Positions 1-4,140 of a stretch of DNA of 4,140 bases are shown here, piece by piece. The stretch is taken from IMG/VR virus record IMGVR_UViG_2547132218_000005, positions 1 through 4,140 of that record; one strand, given 5' to 3'. The stretch is from a virus (lineage: Duplodnaviria; Heunggongvirae; Uroviricota; Caudoviricetes). The notes under the pieces are model-generated. The model searched no databases. It was not told the DNA's origin and saw only the letters and a program-made list of their open reading frames with translations. Made by a program: the position numbers and the translations under genes. Every line of letters begins with the position of its first letter. Position 1 is the stretch's first letter.

Positions 1-20
1 CAGCAAACCGTTTTGCCCGA

Positions 21-36
21 TATGGGAATTCCCATA
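21..36. repeat. 16-bp perfect palindrome TATGGGAATTCCCATA
   Basis: Self-complementary over all 16 positions, lying 11 nt downstream of the small hydrophobic ORF stop. An adjacent imperfect inverted repeat gcaaa-ccgt-tttgc lies at 3..16. Candidate protein-binding site (operator-like) or RNA hairpin. Confidence 0.55.
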
Positions 37-46
37 CGGAATGAAT

Positions 47-151
47 TCAGTTCCCCAGGCGCTCCATCAAAAACACAACCAGGCAGTAAACACCCACAAC
101 AGCAATAACAGCCAGAGCGCCTTCCATTACCAGTGAAATATCATCCGACAT
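47..151 (-). CDS. Small hydrophobic peptide (34 aa, one predicted transmembrane helix); candidate small membrane protein
   Basis: Not in the ORF track (too short). ATG 151..149 is preceded by TCACACCAAGGGAGGGAAT (strong SD, 3-4 nt spacer). My manual translation is MSDDISLVMEGALAVIAVVGVYCLVVFLMERLGN, stop TGA at 49..47. An acidic N-terminus, a ~20-residue hydrophobic stretch and a short polar C-terminus are typical of small phage/prophage membrane peptides and type I toxin-like peptides. The frame is open upstream, but the only other in-frame starts (GTG 196..194, TTG 202..200) lack an SD. Confidence 0.4.
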   Translation of the reverse strand: MSDDISLVMEGALAVIAVVGVYCLVVFLMERLGN

Positions 152-260
152 ATTCCCTCCCTTGGTGTGAATCCCGGCGAACGTTTTTACCCCCACCGAC
201 AAATAACATATACTAGAAAAGCAATAGCTATAGCAACGCCTGCAAATGCATCTGGCCGGC

Positions 261-824
261 TCATTGGTTCTCCCCCTGTGTCGCTTCTACTGCGATCTGA
301 CTGGCGTATTCGTTAATGGTAACGATAAGTTCTTGCTCGGCCTCATCCAGACAACTACCGATACCTCGCCTGTCCACTTCAGAAGCATCGAAATCTGCAC
401 GAAGCCTGGCGACCTTCAGGATTGCGGACAACACCTCATCAGGGATTGCCGGAGAGTTGGTTGACGTTTCCGAGATTATCCGAAAATTATTGGTTGACGA
501 ACCCTTATTTTCCCGAAAGTTTCCAGCCTGAAGCATGGCGGCGCGGTGACACCAGATAATCCAGCCAAGCGCCATATCCCATGCCATGTATTCTCTATCG
601 CCATTTTTTGCTCTGCGGCGATCTACAGATTCCCCGAAACGCTTCTCCATAAATAATTCATAGGCTGCCCGTTCATCCGATACTGATGCCAGTGATGCCA
701 GTGCAATTTTTAATGCGGTAAGCATGTTGTTTTGATCTTCATCGAGTCCGAACGGTATTTCATCCCGTGATGACTCAATTCCGGTAATCGTGTTCTGTAG
801 CCATTCTTTGGTTAATTCAGTCAT
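261..824 (-). CDS. Hypothetical protein (187 aa)
   Basis: ATG 824..822; long open frame with balanced composition. Weak SD (GTAGTGAAAA) and a GC stem-loop 9 nt upstream of the ATG. No family recognised. Stop TGA 263..261. Confidence 0.65.
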   Translation of the reverse strand: MTELTKEWLQNTITGIESSRDEIPFGLDEDQNNMLTALKIALASLASVSDERAAYELFMEKRFGESVDRRRAKNGDREYMAWDMALGWIIWCHRAAMLQAGNFRENKGSSTNNFRIISETSTNSPAIPDEVLSAILKVARLRADFDASEVDRRGIGSCLDEAEQELIVTINEYASQIAVEATQGENQ

Positions 825-833
825 TTTTCACTA

Positions 834-849
834 CCGCCCTTTCGGGCGG
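834..849. other. GC-rich stem-loop (6-bp stem CCGCCC/GGGCGG, 4-nt loop), function unassigned
   Basis: ccgccc-tttc-gggcgg at 834..849. On the minus-strand transcript it reads CCGCCC-GAAA-GGGCGG (GNRA-type loop) and ends 9 nt before the ATG of the 187-aa gene. No U-tract follows on either strand, so it is not a canonical intrinsic terminator. Confidence 0.5.
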
Positions 850-950
850 TCTCCTGATGTTCTGAGGGTGCAGGAATCCCTCCGGTTAAGGATTTAATAA
901 AAATCATTTCTGATTTAAATTTTCAGTGTTTAGTTGTTGGTTTATAGCCT

Positions 951-1262
951 TTATGCTTCGGCCTTATTTCTCAGCCATACACAAACAGGACCATCTTCGG
1001 TGTCATGTATCGAACCGATAAACCATCCCTCACCTTCTGGTCGCTCAGGTTCCCATGCTGAAATATCAGGGCCATCTGCGTCCAGATTAAAATCATCTTC
1101 ATCCATACTACGGATAGCCCACTGAAGATTATTTTTCTCCATCCAGGCGTTAAACTCTTCCGTTGAAATATATTCCCGACCATCACAGAATTTTTCATAT
1201 TCAGGATGCGTCCAGCAGCCATATTCATTACGTTCCACTGGCATTTCTTTAATTACGCTCAT
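951..1262 (-). CDS. Hypothetical acidic protein (103 aa)
   Basis: ATG 1262..1260 preceded by ATAAGGGGGGTAA (SD-like). Acidic, Trp-rich sequence (EYGCWTHPEYEKFCDGREY ... WEPERPEGEGWFIGSIHDTEDGPVCVWL). I do not recognise the family with confidence; resemblance to small phage DUF-type proteins is only a vague impression. The alternative 85-aa ORF at 971..1228 is in another frame of the same region and is less protein-like. Confidence 0.65.
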   Translation of the reverse strand: MSVIKEMPVERNEYGCWTHPEYEKFCDGREYISTEEFNAWMEKNNLQWAIRSMDEDDFNLDADGPDISAWEPERPEGEGWFIGSIHDTEDGPVCVWLRNKAEA

Positions 1263-1447
1263 TTACCCCCCTTATTTAATTTTCTACGACACTTTTTACA
1301 ATCATCTGGACTTTCGAATGTATCCGGCTCACGCTCATTGCCAAAATACATCCACCCACCGCAAATACTTGTTATTTCACCTTCAGCAAAATAATGATGT
1401 TTTTTCGCCATAAGTGACCTTGCCCAGCCCGGATTCGTTTTACTCAC
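1259..1447 (-). CDS. Small Cys/His-containing protein (62 aa), possible metal-binding, GTG start
   Basis: GTG at 1447..1445 is preceded by TCGCAAAGGAGGCAACAA (AAGGAGG about 6 nt upstream), a very good SD. An alternative internal ATG lies at 1411..1409. Contains HH...C(GGW)...C-K-K-C, which could form a small zinc-binding knuckle. Stop TGA 1261..1259 overlaps the next ATG (ATGA). Confidence 0.55.
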   Translation of the reverse strand: MSKTNPGWARSLMAKKHHYFAEGEITSICGGWMYFGNEREPDTFESPDDCKKCRRKLNKGGK

Positions 1448-1800
1448 TTGTTGCCTCCTTTGCGAAGCTCTGCGACTAACTCGTCACATATGTGCGTCAA
1501 AGAGCAAAGTTTGATTGCTGGATGTTCGCGCACCATCTCCACACCCTGCGCCCGCAATTCTGCCAGAAAAGCGTAGGGGTCAGTTTTTTCACTGTGGTAC
1601 ATGGCATCATAGATAATCATTGCAGCGACACCTGCCTGTCCTGCATCTGTGACGGATATATGCTCAAGGGCTACGGCCATTGCGTGTTTCAACCTCTCAT
1701 TTTCCACCTCAAGCACCACACGATTAGCCTCCAGCTCTTCTATGCGTTTTTTTGCTGCTCCCAGCTCAACACGCAGCTCCTGATAGTTAATCTCGCTCAT
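1444..1800 (-). CDS. Hypothetical protein with N-terminal coiled-coil (118 aa)
   Basis: ATG 1800..1798 preceded by GCGGGAGGAAGGAGA (strong SD). N-terminus ELRVELGAAKKRIEELEANRVVLEVENERLKHAMAVALEH has heptad-like charged/hydrophobic periodicity. Architecture is like prophage Ea22-type coiled-coil proteins, but I cannot assert family membership. Stop TGA 1446..1444 overlaps the next start (GTGA). Confidence 0.65.
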   Translation of the reverse strand: MSEINYQELRVELGAAKKRIEELEANRVVLEVENERLKHAMAVALEHISVTDAGQAGVAAMIIYDAMYHSEKTDPYAFLAELRAQGVEMVREHPAIKLCSLTHICDELVAELRKGGNK

Positions 1801-2021
1801 TCTCCTTCCTCCCGCACTGCTGTTTTATATGCCCGAAGCACATGCGATGTTTTTCCTGACACAGTGCTTCTCAGAAAGAAAATTCCACTGGTGTTTATTA
1901 CCAGATACGGGTCAGCAAGACGCAGCATATCCAGTATGTGATTATGTTTTCTTGTTTCCAGCACCGTACTTGAAATAAGCATATGTGACACGGGGCCGAA
2001 ATCATGATATCTGATTTTCAT
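1797..2021 (-). CDS. Hypothetical protein (74 aa)
   Basis: ATG at 2021..2019 preceded by CAGCAGGGTGATGAT (moderate SD), 21 nt downstream of the preceding gene's stop. Its stop TGA (1799..1797) overlaps the next gene's ATG (1800..1798) as ATGA. No recognisable motif; the composition is less protein-like than its neighbours, hence the lower confidence. Confidence 0.45.
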   Translation of the reverse strand: MKIRYHDFGPVSHMLISSTVLETRKHNHILDMLRLADPYLVINTSGIFFLRSTVSGKTSHVLRAYKTAVREEGE

Positions 2022-2042
2022 ATCATCACCCTGCTGTAAAAA

Positions 2043-2753
2043 TTACCCGTTATCTCCTGTCGTTATTTTCTGTATGACATCACGATGCTTATTAATTTCC
2101 CGCAGCGCGGCGCATAAGCGCTCCCACTTCTGAACCTGACCTTTTGCCCGGCGCAGCTCGCGGTTAGCCACATGCAGCGATGGTAAAATCAGACCATCCG
2201 GATGCTTTCTGGTGAACGACGGCTGTGACTGCACTGTGACCGCCACACTTTCCGTTTTTATTTCTTCCTGTGTTTCCGCTTCCCCGACTGGTAACGCAAC
2301 ACCTGCTGGCTGAGGAAAGGCTTTACCATCCGTTTCCGTTATGGATGCGGCTTTCGGCTCTGCCGGTAAATCAGCGCCCGGTATGCAGTACCGAAATTTA
2401 CCGCCCTGATTCACGCGAATCAGACGCCCTTTGCTGATTGCCATGGCCAGTGATGAATTCGCCCGGCGGGAGGTAATCCCGAACATCAGTGCCAGCTCAT
2501 CCGCCGTTTGTGGGCCATGATGTTCAATCGCCTCAGTCAGCATTTGCGCTGTCACTTTCGGTACCGGTGACACTGGTTCACTTTCACCAGTCTGAGTCAG
2601 CCACCACATCGACCCCTTGTTATCCGCTTCACCACGGCGCTTCAGTTTCCACAGTTCGTTGACAGCATCTTCGCGGCTGATTCCAAGGCGCGATGCCACT
2701 ACCTGTGAAGAGGCTTTTTTCAGTGCTTTCAGTGCGTCAAATACGGTTTCCAT
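2043..2753 (-). CDS. Hypothetical DNA-binding-like protein with two winged-helix-like segments separated by an acidic/Pro-rich linker (DUF1627-like, tentative)
   Basis: The track ORF is 2043..2771, but its first codon is TTG with no SD. The first ATG is at 2753..2751 ([13 protein letters not shown]...) and is preceded by GTCGGAGGAAATATTA (GGAGG about 8 nt upstream), so I place the start at 2753. Two segments ([36 protein letters not shown] and [46 protein letters not shown]) have the helix-turn-helix then basic wing pattern typical of winged-helix domains. The DUF1627 label is from memory and unverified. Stop TAA at 2045..2043, 33 nt after the P-like stop. Confidence 0.65.
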
Positions 2754-2786
2754 TAATATTTCCTCCGACAAAATCGTTTCTCAGAT

Positions 2787-3449
2787 TCAAATAAAACCAG
2801 CTGCCTTCCGGCGTTCGTATTCCTGTTTCAGCCGTTCAATTGGCGTTGGCCCTTGCGGGTGTTTCGCCCCTTCCAGTTGTCGTCGCACTGGCGGAACACT
2901 CATCCCGTTACCAACATGCTTTGCCCATTTCGTCAGTTGCCGTTCCGCAAGTCGTTTTAACTCACCTTGCGTCATCTGGCGCTCAATCCCTCTGGTACGC
3001 ATTTCGAGGCAGATGTGGTACAGCACAGGCTGTGGCCACGGGTATTTATCACTCCCGTCGTATCGCCAGGATTCATTGCGCCAGCGCCGGTACTCTTCCA
3101 TCACGGCATCCACCGTAAGACCAAATGGATTTGCCCCACTCTCCGAAATCAGCGCAACAAACTCAGCCAGGTCCGGGGGCCACGTTTCACCCGCCCGGCA
3201 GCGGTCCATGCACTGACGGCACACCAGACGGATTTGCTGTTCAGTCATCGCACCAATCTGGGCAATCCAGAGCTTCGAAGGTGCGGCCCCGTTCTTCTGA
3301 GTCCAGCGGTTCGAATACACCTCCCCCATGAGCTCCCACAGCTTCCAGGCCGTTTCCGTTGCTGATAAATCCGTTGTCACGTTCCCACTGTTCGCGTGCA
3401 GCCCGGATTTCCTGAACTGCCCGTGATGCCGTGCCACCTGATGCTGCAT
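2787..3449 (-). CDS. Replication protein P-like DnaB helicase loader
   Basis: 220-aa ORF. The C-terminal ~150 aa align with lambda P as I recall it (DKYPWPQPVLYHICLEMRTRGIERQMTQGELKRLAERQLTKWAKHVGNGMSVPPVRRQ versus ESYPWKSNAHYWLVTNLYQNMRANALTDAELRRKAADELVHMTARINRGEAIPEPVKQ, and PPDLAEFVALISESGANPFG versus PSPGQFVAWCREEASVTAGLP). ATG at 3449..3447 is preceded by CAGCAAGGGGGGAAGCC (SD-like, ~5 nt spacer). An alternative start is the internal ATG at 3248..3246 (Met68), which sits 2 nt upstream of the initiator stop codon (ATGACTGA) but has a weak SD. Start-site choice is unresolved. Confidence 0.8.
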   Translation of the reverse strand: MQHQVARHHGQFRKSGLHANSGNVTTDLSATETAWKLWELMGEVYSNRWTQKNGAAPSKLWIAQIGAMTEQQIRLVCRQCMDRCRAGETWPPDLAEFVALISESGANPFGLTVDAVMEEYRRWRNESWRYDGSDKYPWPQPVLYHICLEMRTRGIERQMTQGELKRLAERQLTKWAKHVGNGMSVPPVRRQLEGAKHPQGPTPIERLKQEYERRKAAGFI

Positions 3450-4140
3450 GGCTTCCCCCCTTGCTGACTGGTTTTACCTGTGCCCTGACGTGCTGCACGT
3501 GGCGGGCAAATTTCTGCTCCCACTGAACCTGCGTGAAAACCTTCCCCTCCGCCATCCAGTAATCCCGGAATGCGGCAAGCTCAGCAGGTGTAAATTCCGG
3601 CTCAGGCAGAGCCATACCCCACACTGCTGCCCGTTGTCGAAAATCCGGCGACGGCTGCCAGACAGTAGTCATCGAAAATTTCCCGATCGGTTCGCTCAGG
3701 CCGTCCAGGTATTCAGGTTCGGCTGTCTGCAACGGCGCACCATTCGACTCACTGGTCGGAATACTCTCGCGCGCGTTATGTGTGGGGTTTAATTCTGTAT
3801 CTGTATCTTTATCTGTATCTTTATCTGTCGTGACTTGTCGTGACAGATGCGTGACACGTCGTGACTCATCGTGACAATCAGCATTATGTTTCCGCAGCTT
3901 TTCCCGCTCCCGCTGCGCTCTCTTGCGCTCTGCCGGGGATTTTGCCGTTTGCGAAACGTTACCATTGTCCTCTTTCAGCACCTGACGTTTTTCCCATCCG
4001 GAAATAAGGTCACCATCCAGAACCCGCCCCTGCATTGCATGCAAAATTGAATCAATTACGTCTTCCGTCACATCAAGCGCACTTGCTAAATCTTCCGTCG
4101 TGACATCAATGTGACCACGTAGTGACACGCCGTGACATGT
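3241..4140 (-). CDS. Replication initiator (lambda O-like role), 5'-partial, with C-terminal DnaT-like (primosomal protein I) domain
   Basis: ORF track gives 3241..4128, but its first codon is GTG and the frame stays open upstream to the window edge (in-frame codons 4140..4129 read T-C-H-G), so the true start is beyond 4140. The segment IGKFSMTTVWQPSPDFRQRAAVWGMALPEPEFTPAELAAFRDYWMAEGKVFTQVQWEQKFARHVQHVRAQV aligns closely with the C-terminal domain of E. coli DnaT as I recall it ([63 protein letters not shown]). Position directly upstream of a P-like loader gene fits the lambdoid O-P arrangement. The middle of the protein is low-complexity (K/R/E-rich, TDKD repeats) and coincides with the DNA repeats described below. 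Stop TGA at 3243..3241. Confidence 0.8.
   Translation of the reverse strand, partial: TCHGVSLRGHIDVTTEDLASALDVTEDVIDSILHAMQGRVLDGDLISGWEKRQVLKEDNGNVSQTAKSPAERKRAQREREKLRKHNADCHDESRRVTHLSRQVTTDKDTDKDTDTELNPTHNARESIPTSESNGAPLQTAEPEYLDGLSEPIGKFSMTTVWQPSPDFRQRAAVWGMALPEPEFTPAELAAFRDYWMAEGKVFTQVQWEQKFARHVQHVRAQVKPVSKGGSHAASGGTASRAVQEIRAAREQWERDNGFISNGNGLEAVGAHGGGVFEPLDSEERGRTFEALDCPDWCDD
3794..3829. repeat. Tandem hexamer repeat (TCTGTA/TCTTTA) x 6, AT-rich, abutting iteron cluster A
   Basis: tctgta tctgta tcttta tctgta tcttta tctgtc at 3794..3829, about 70% A+T. On the coding (minus) strand it encodes the TDKDTDKDTD segment of the initiator. Confidence 0.8.
3828..3875. repeat. Iteron-like direct repeat cluster A: 5 x (T/G)CGTGAC at 10-11 bp spacing; candidate origin iterons
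   Basis: Units ctgTCGTGAC (3825..3834), ttgTCGTGAC (3835..3844), agatGCGTGAC (3845..3855), acgTCGTGAC (3856..3865), tcaTCGTGAC (3866..3875). GTGAC cores end at 3834, 3844, 3855, 3865, 3875. Because the spacing is not a multiple of 3, the same DNA motif is read in all three frames of the initiator gene (C-H, S-R, V-T, L-S-R, V-T), so the repetition is at the DNA level, not a peptide repeat. Confidence 0.6.
4098..4136. repeat. Iteron-like direct repeat cluster B: 4 x GTGAC at 10-11 bp spacing, may continue beyond the window end
   Basis: ccgTCGTGAC (4095..4104), atcaATGTGAC (4105..4115), cacgtAGTGAC (4116..4126), acgcCGTGAC (4127..4136). Same orientation and core as cluster A; flanking bases are more variable. 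The window ends 4 nt after the last copy. Confidence 0.5.

Follow-up and report, generated by a model that had tools for sequence, protein, structure and literature searches.

The C-terminal domain of the Escherichia coli primosomal protein DnaT winds, as a filament of helical form, about single-stranded DNA (ssDNA) of the lagging strand, with two bases at each interface, and docks on PriA (PMC13377028). Its authors liken the filament to DnaA marking a loading site. The acidic linker of DnaT binds PriB; the N-terminal domain oligomerises and has tentatively been proposed to recruit DnaB/DnaC (PMC13377028). Here we describe a prophage replication initiator that carries a DnaT-like domain and is encoded beside a helicase loader of the lambda P type. 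Both genes lie in a 4,140-nucleotide stretch of phage DNA (Caudoviricetes; positions 1 to 4,140 of IMG/VR record IMGVR_UViG_2547132218_000005), hereafter the window. With moderate confidence, we read the module as an origin, an initiator and a lambda-P-family loader that work together as lambda O/P do, with a built-in ssDNA-binding step.

The locus has the same order as the lambda O/ori-lambda/P region: cro/cII-like genes are followed by an initiator gene and a gene for a P-family loader. As in lambda, iterons lie inside the initiator gene, in DNA for the interdomain linker, and are followed by an AT-rich region; here the likeness is one of sequence anatomy. Also as in lambda, the N-terminal half and iterons exchange independently of the C-terminal half and P. 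The two systems differ in their parts. The initiator's N-terminal domain is not Phage_rep_O and its C-terminal domain has no relation to the one in lambda O. There are five direct iteron cores of 6 bp at 10-11 bp intervals, compared with four 18-bp sites in lambda. The initiator and P genes overlap by 209 nucleotides rather than by the 4 nucleotides of lambda O/P. Finally, we know of no ssDNA-binding step in the action of lambda O.

A second relevant system is DopCE of Cellvibrionales and Oceanospirillales. DopC has an O-like helix-turn-helix N-terminus and a DnaT C-terminal domain, and is encoded immediately upstream of the lambda-P-like DopE (PMC5509034). This domesticated, resident chromosomal pair lacks iterons and is not believed to function as an origin. 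Its authors (Brezellec et al. 2017) considered the DnaT domain to be a substitution of phage features (PMC5509034). The pairing in the window is the same, the likeness being drawn from the architecture as described. Unlike DopCE, the window module is in a prophage and has iterons. Since phages have this architecture along with iterons, DopC probably inherited it from them in finished form and did not acquire it by substitution after domestication.

Phages phiV10 (gp43/gp44), Tyrion, TL-2011b, Rac-SA53 (YdaU/YdaV) and Chris1 (O/P) also encode a DnaT-domain initiator followed by a Phage_lambda_P protein. The GenBank notes of phiV10 refer gp43 to the HAMAP DnaT family and gp44 to PF06992. The family and its pairing with a P-type loader are therefore not new: both have been annotated and published (phiV10 notes; PMC5509034). 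A preliminary description of the window, prepared by a model from the sequence alone, had suspected as much of the family, and RefSeq names point the same way. The preprimosome structures of 2026, in which the DnaT filament marks the helicase-loading site, now provide a testable hypothesis for this widespread class of prophage initiators. The class is apparently unstudied biochemically.

DnaT-like domain of the initiator

The window holds the last 299 codons of the initiator gene. The first 48 lie beyond the window end, and residue numbers below refer to the full protein of 347 residues. Its RefSeq entry, WP_001262402.1, is named 'DnaT-like ssDNA-binding domain-containing protein', and the protein matches phrog_1408, 'replication initiation protein' (E 1e-104). 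Four parts follow one another in the initiator: a DNA-binding domain at the N-terminus, a disordered linker, a three-helix bundle of the DnaT type and a tail of 77 residues. Coordinates are listed in Table 1.

Table 1. Features of the window and the evidence on which each was placed.
Feature	Position in window	Strand	Basis
Replication initiator gene, codons 49-347 and stop	3241..4140	-	Identical to WP_001262402.1
N-terminal domain, probably winged-helix, residues 1-~104 (49-104 in window)	3973..4140	-	AlphaFold, predicted local distance difference test (pLDDT) 80-89
Basic helix KRAQREREKLRKHNAD, residues 117-134	3883..3936	-	AlphaFold
DnaT-like three-helix-bundle domain, residues 199-270	3475..3690	-	Pfam, NCBIfam, PDB search, AlphaFold, Foldseek
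Initiator C-terminal tail, residues 271-347	3244..3474	-	AlphaFold, alignments
Out-of-frame overlap of initiator tail and first 69 P codons, 209 nucleotides	3241..3449	-	Variant comparison
Lambda-P-type helicase loader, open reading frame (ORF) of 220 codons from ATG 3449	2787..3449	-	Pfam, phrog_109, PDB
Shine-Dalgarno-like AAGGGGGGAAG ahead of ATG 3449	3452..3462	-	Sequence inspection
Putative origin iterons, five direct GTCACG repeats, spacing 10, 10, 11, 10 bp	3829..3875	-	Repeat search
Upstream GTCAC(G/T) cluster, 10-bp spacing	4099..4140 and past window end (L001 5985-6042)	-	Repeat search
AT-rich block, three 12-bp repeats ACAGATAAAGAT, putative DNA-unwinding element	3794..3828	-	Role deduced from sequence and position
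Conserved box TTAAACCCCACACATAACGCGCGC, codes ELNPTHNAR, left edge of C-terminal module	3769..3792	-	DNA comparison
DUF1627 gene	2043-2771	-	
Coiled-coil Ead/Ea22-like fragment	1444-1800	-	
Small PHROG families without assigned function	1259-1447, 951-1262, 261-824	-	

Profile, sequence and structure searches agree on the three-helix bundle. Residues 203-269 match the Pfam DnaT DNA-binding domain (PF17948) with 62.9 bits (cut-off 25, E 2e-17), spanning profile positions 1-63 of 69. A phmmer search of the Protein Data Bank (PDB) returned DnaT C-terminal domains only (6aep, 4ou6, 9zbt and 2ru8; E 1e-20 to 6e-17), with ~55% identity across 70 residues. The AlphaFold model of this segment has helices at residues 215-221, 233-246 and 252-270, with a pLDDT of only 63-71. 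Aligned with DnaT84-153 (4ou6_B) by Foldseek, it gave a root mean square deviation of 1.3 Å, a template modelling score of 0.89 and a probability of 1.00. Overall, the bundle is the same as in the E. coli DnaT C-terminal domain (4OU6, 2RU8, 9ZBT) and 55-58% identical to it.

The residues with which DnaT contacts ssDNA are retained. Mutation of DnaT Y127, W128, K133, F135, K143 or R146 abolishes ssDNA binding (PMC4132743). In the phmmer/PDB alignment these six positions correspond to Y242, W243, K248, F250, K258 and R261 of the initiator. Among 23 homologues the first five are invariant and R261 is nearly so. The DnaT interface residues E131 and A130 (PMC4132743) are also kept.

Unlike E. coli DnaT, the initiator carries this domain fused to a putative origin-binding domain, is prophage-encoded and stands beside a loader gene. 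It also lacks the rest of DnaT. The NCBIfam equivalog model for DnaT (NF002770) matched with E 5e-27 and 94.7 bits, below its 201-bit cut-off, and only at profile positions 82-156 of 179. There was no match to positions 1-81, which cover the DnaT N-terminal oligomerisation domain and the acidic PriB-binding linker (D66, D70). The initiator has 1780 relatives in a large protein database, with at least four different N-terminal architectures. Their names include 'DnaT-like ssDNA-binding domain-containing protein', 'phage replisome organizer', 'primosomal protein I' and 'DUF1376 domain-containing protein'. Database entries that bear the first of these names run to thousands.

BLASTP found no similarity between lambda O and the initiator. 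By eye, the C-terminal domain of lambda O and the DnaT domain share a faint pattern (F..W....FW / KLR.KW). Distant homology was rejected: an alignment of DnaT-like domains compared by hhalign with an alignment of lambda O C-terminal domains gave a probability of 0.06% (E 0.73). The preliminary description had taken the C-terminal half of the initiator for DnaT-like rather than lambda-O-like, and both parts of that claim hold. With a clean alignment at the identity given above, the similarity is not low-complexity noise. Residues ~145-225 of the window fragment had been assigned to the domain; the DnaT placement stands and the limits do not, since the domain occupies fragment residues 151-222 (full-length residues 199-270). 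The other profile named there, Pfam Phage_rep_O (PF04492), gave no match to the initiator at E <= 1, and scores 123 bits with lambda O itself.

So close a likeness to host DnaT invites another explanation. The domain might mimic DnaT and dock on PriA, perhaps taking ssDNA from PriB, so that replication, or restart after fork collapse, would proceed through the host restart primosome. Indeed, the DnaT C-terminal domain docks on PriA via a conserved hydrophobic surface (PMC13377028), and certain DnaT-domain initiators come without their own loader gene. However, both the acidic PriB-binding linker and the DnaT N-terminal domain are absent, and the module has its own P-type loader, which in lambda brings DnaB to the O-bound origin. 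We regard mimicry of host DnaT as improbable.

Putative origin and mosaic joints

AlphaFold models the initiator's N-terminal domain as helices and a beta-hairpin. Foldseek returned only weak, non-significant matches for it, to winged-helix proteins of the MarR/CAP/ArsR kind, and it has no Pfam family. A basic helix follows, and then a predicted disordered interdomain linker (residues 135-196). The five iterons sit in the DNA that codes for this linker. Their core, GTCACG, occurs 16 times in 13.4 kb compared with 5.2 expected, and none of 200 shuffles reached 16. Nine of the 16 copies fall within two same-strand clusters inside the initiator gene, the second being ~270 bp upstream of the five-iteron cluster. 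The AT-rich repeats come directly after the iterons. Judged by this layout, iterons and AT-rich block may form a lambda-like origin embedded in coding sequence.

DNA comparison located recombination joints on both sides of the AT-rich block. Phages Evi and Tritos have the N-terminal domain, iterons and AT-rich repeats in common with the window and then diverge. The reverse is seen in Rac-SA53. Its N-terminal domain is DUF1376, its repeats differ, and it joins the window sequence at the AT-rich block. This block is common to both, and beyond it so are the DnaT-like domain, tail and P, at 87%. TL-2011b marks a third joint, just after the DnaT-like domain. In this phage the domain is 82% identical, there is no long tail and the P protein, of 258 residues, is only 29% identical. 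These three joints bear out the mosaic module envisaged in the preliminary description.

The Evi and Tritos initiators (L093 2364-3434 and L094 2373-3443, respectively) are each of 356 residues. Their C-terminal half has no Pfam match, and the gene that follows encodes LygF/DUF977 and not a loader.

The conserved box at the left edge of the C-terminal module is common to the window, Rac-SA53 and TL-2011b, and in part to Chris1. It was present in all DnaT-type modules examined, despite unrelated N-terminal domains, and residues N166-N170 are invariant in the homologue alignment. The box can fold as an imperfect hairpin. It might belong to the origin, or be a site where crossovers that exchange modules preferentially occur.

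Repeat searches in Rac-SA53, Chris1 and TL-2011b found only weak two-copy families. Co-variation of iterons with the type of N-terminal domain was not demonstrable from these searches; the mosaic joint is its sole support.

Loader partners of the DnaT-like domain

The protein encoded next to the initiator is a lambda-P-type loader, as the preliminary description had recognised. It matches Pfam Phage_lambda_P (PF06992) with 57.9 bits (cut-off 26; profile positions 31-161 of 162) and phrog_109, 'P-like helicase loader', with E 1.5e-62. The match to the lambda P chain in the PDB (8v9t_V) has E 0.0025, and identity to lambda P is 25% over 113 aligned residues. As a separate observation, W90 of the P-like protein (window 3180-3182) aligns with lambda P F99, a reported ssDNA contact (PMC12661323), with the aromatic character kept.

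We then compared the neighbours of related initiators. The DnaT-like domain is carried by 54 records of a phage record collection. Where neighbours were inspected, a P-family protein was found in Rac-SA53, Chris1, TL-2011b, phiV10 and Tyrion. Rac-SA53 and Chris1 resemble the window in their long tail and overlapping P of 220 residues, and have different N-terminal domains. In phiV10, Tyrion and TL-2011b the tail is 23-30 residues, P is 258-261 residues and the overlap only 4-29 nucleotides. The same DnaT-like C-terminal domain stands beside a DnaC/IstB-like ATPase in Aeromonas phage pAEv1818 (gp25/gp26), and epsilon15 and SPN1S have no loader beside the initiator.

A wider census covered 178 distinct DnaT-domain initiators, a biased sample drawn from three viral-contig scans and reference phages. 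A tail of 72-79 residues with an overlapping P of ~220 residues was the commonest arrangement (117 initiators). Thirteen combine a short tail with a P of 250-260 residues, seven a short tail with a DnaC-like neighbour, and 28, with a short tail or none, lack an adjacent loader. Five further long-tail initiators were first scored as 'none/other'. For two of them (L182 and L184) the listed ORFs include an overlapping P behind a longer upstream ORF; L181 and L185 are their uninspected relatives. The fifth, L169, has no P-like ORF before a DUF1627-like gene. In the long-tail initiators, tail and P are inherited together.

The DnaT-like domain itself does not track loader type, because in TL-2011b a domain 82% identical to ours occurs with the distant P and without the long tail. 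This bears on the suggestion, made in the preliminary description, that helicase recruitment works through a DnaT-like interaction. Stated fully, the domain would replace the C-terminal domain of lambda O and itself recruit P-DnaB. It does occupy the position of that P-binding domain and, as seen against the N-terminal domain, travels in one block with tail and P. Moreover, DopC (DnaT_C) and the P-like DopE are always adjacent and co-evolve (PMC5509034). Nevertheless, neighbours in the census are of two P types or, as in pAEv1818, a DnaC/IstB-like ATPase, and a loader may be missing altogether, as in epsilon15 and SPN1S; the TL-2011b domain works with a very different P. In DnaT the C-terminal domain binds ssDNA as a filament and docks on PriA; recruitment of DnaB/DnaC is tentatively assigned to the N-terminal domain (PMC13377028), which is absent here. 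For these reasons the suggestion is not supported, and we consider direct recruitment by the domain unlikely.

Returning to a lambda O/P-like module with an ssDNA-binding step, we infer the following order of events from the domains, repeats, joints and overlap that were observed. N-terminal domains would bind the phased iterons and oligomerise on the origin, as lambda O does. The adjacent AT-rich block would then open. DnaT-like domains, clustered by iteron binding, would coat one of the opened strands, keeping the bubble open and marking the helicase site. Finally, the P-like protein with host DnaB would dock on the initiator and place DnaB on the single strand; the most likely dock is the tail, not the DnaT-like domain.

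Initiator tail, gene overlap and prophage setting

The tail has one predicted helix (residues 288-303, window 3376-3423). The stretch after it is predicted to be disordered and ends in an acidic, aromatic ...CPDWCDD. Much of the tail is encoded by DNA shared, out of frame, with P. Selection on the overlap was analysed by comparing 53 distinct sequences that occur naturally for the region and are 90-100% identical. Across 206 nucleotides of overlap, 59% of changes were P-synonymous, compared with 23% in an upstream control (p 5e-5), and 33% were initiator-synonymous, compared with 14% in a downstream control (p 0.016). Changes altering both proteins made up 8%, against 48% expected by chance. 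The two frames are not constrained in the same place. From 3449 to 3366, ten changes were initiator-synonymous and five P-synonymous; from 3365 to 3244, 18 of 22 variants were P-synonymous and three initiator-synonymous. Constraint thus passes from the initiator frame to the P frame within the overlap. The P frame is also under purifying selection upstream of 3248. Both genes are under purifying selection, with variation mostly at third codon positions.

The layout is maintained over larger distances. In seven diverged lineages the initiator frame runs 63-70 codons into P without a stop, after which stops come about once in 15 codons. The frame of lambda, phiV10 and Tyrion reaches a stop within 4-10 codons. 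Both proteins can be aligned across the diverged lineages. P keeps AW.LWE.M..IY.NRW..KNG, and the tails keep the helix, a G..G motif, EERG and the acidic aromatic end. Complete phages keep tail and overlap, and so do lineages of Citrobacter, Klebsiella and others in which identity of the DnaT domain to its counterpart in an Aeromonas phage is only 54-68%. Selection acts on the first part of the tail; the last ~40 residues may either have a function or simply be tolerated.

The start given for P differs between databases. The RefSeq start, from the Prokaryotic Genome Annotation Pipeline, is at 3248 and gives 153 residues; forms of 180 and 220 residues are also held. The 220-residue form is AAG56164.1 of strain EDL933, 'unknown protein encoded within prophage CP-933O'. 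From residue 18 of this ORF onwards there is homology to phiV10 P and phrog_109, and the Pfam match extends over 20 more profile positions than with the short form. ATG 3449 is preceded by AAGGGGGG. Variants keep the ATG and the purine-rich stretch, and the G run varies (GGGGGG, GGGGGT, AGGGGT, GGGGGGG). Since homology and substitution pattern favour it, we conclude that the P start most likely lies at 3449 or close to it and, by the same sequence evidence, that the overlap is real and old. In many E. coli genomes the RefSeq model of P probably lacks 67 codons.

A programmed frameshift yielding an O-P fusion was also considered. It was hinted at by phrog_15931, a 482-residue profile that spans both initiator and P, and by the run of six G residues before the P ATG. 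It was rejected, as the G run is not conserved and a conserved slippery site is lacking. The only fused proteins found, of 481-496 residues (P0047, P0068), trace to just one or two Logan assemblies, have differing joints and were set aside as assembly errors or rare indels.

The module belongs to a cryptic Rac-like lambdoid prophage of the CP-933O type, of E. coli O157:H7. Window positions 2700-4140 are 100% identical to prophage DNA in many O157:H7 genomes. The prophage is called cryptic because in strain TR01 the integrase and recE genes are pseudogenes (L001 299-2071); the replication module there is intact. It might be argued that the module is likewise a decaying remnant, whose long tail and overlap arose by accident when a stop codon was lost and now serve no function. 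The pseudogenes fit such decay, as do the disputed P start and the last ~40 tail residues, which are unconstrained and predicted to be disordered. Against this, both genes are intact in hundreds of genomes and under purifying selection, and the tail and overlap are kept in complete phages and in diverged lineages. The chance of a frame staying free of stops in this way is ~1% per lineage. We find decay very doubtful.

Several points also count against our reading of the module as a lambda-like origin, initiator and loader with an ssDNA-binding step. The AlphaFold model of the full initiator is weak overall (mean pLDDT 55). That the N-terminal domain binds the iterons, that the AT-rich block opens and that ssDNA is coated are all deductions. 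The last ~40 tail residues have no constraint of their own and are modelled as disordered, so the tail could be read-through that is tolerated and not a site of docking. Given their shared DNA, tail and P are bound to be inherited together, which is no proof of interaction. The prophage that carries the module is defective, with its integrase and recE genes pseudogenised. A literature search found no experiment on any phage DnaT-like initiator, and among the open-access papers searched there was none with 'DnaT-like', nor one with DUF1376 together with DnaT.

The reading can be extended, tentatively. Initiators of this class might open the origin and coat a strand with their own DnaT-type filament, while the disordered tail catches the loader and the shared DNA keeps the interacting ends from being separated by recombination. 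As a corollary, host dnaT-dnaC and DopCE would be domesticated phage modules, with a phage-inherited DnaT domain. We think this extended version possible rather than probable.

Every long ORF of the window is on the minus strand. Rfam, promoter and terminator scans of the window gave nothing relevant. Downstream of P (window 261-2771, minus strand) lie genes typical of a lambdoid early region, with nothing unusual among them. RefSeq gives the order 'DnaT-like ssDNA-binding domain-containing protein', 'replication protein P' and 'DUF1627 domain-containing protein' in the matching O157:H7 genomes. In strain TR01 the module is downstream of cI/cro-like and ydaT-like genes, and is followed by the DUF1627 gene. 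A scan of genome contigs identified one locus only, in E. albertii.

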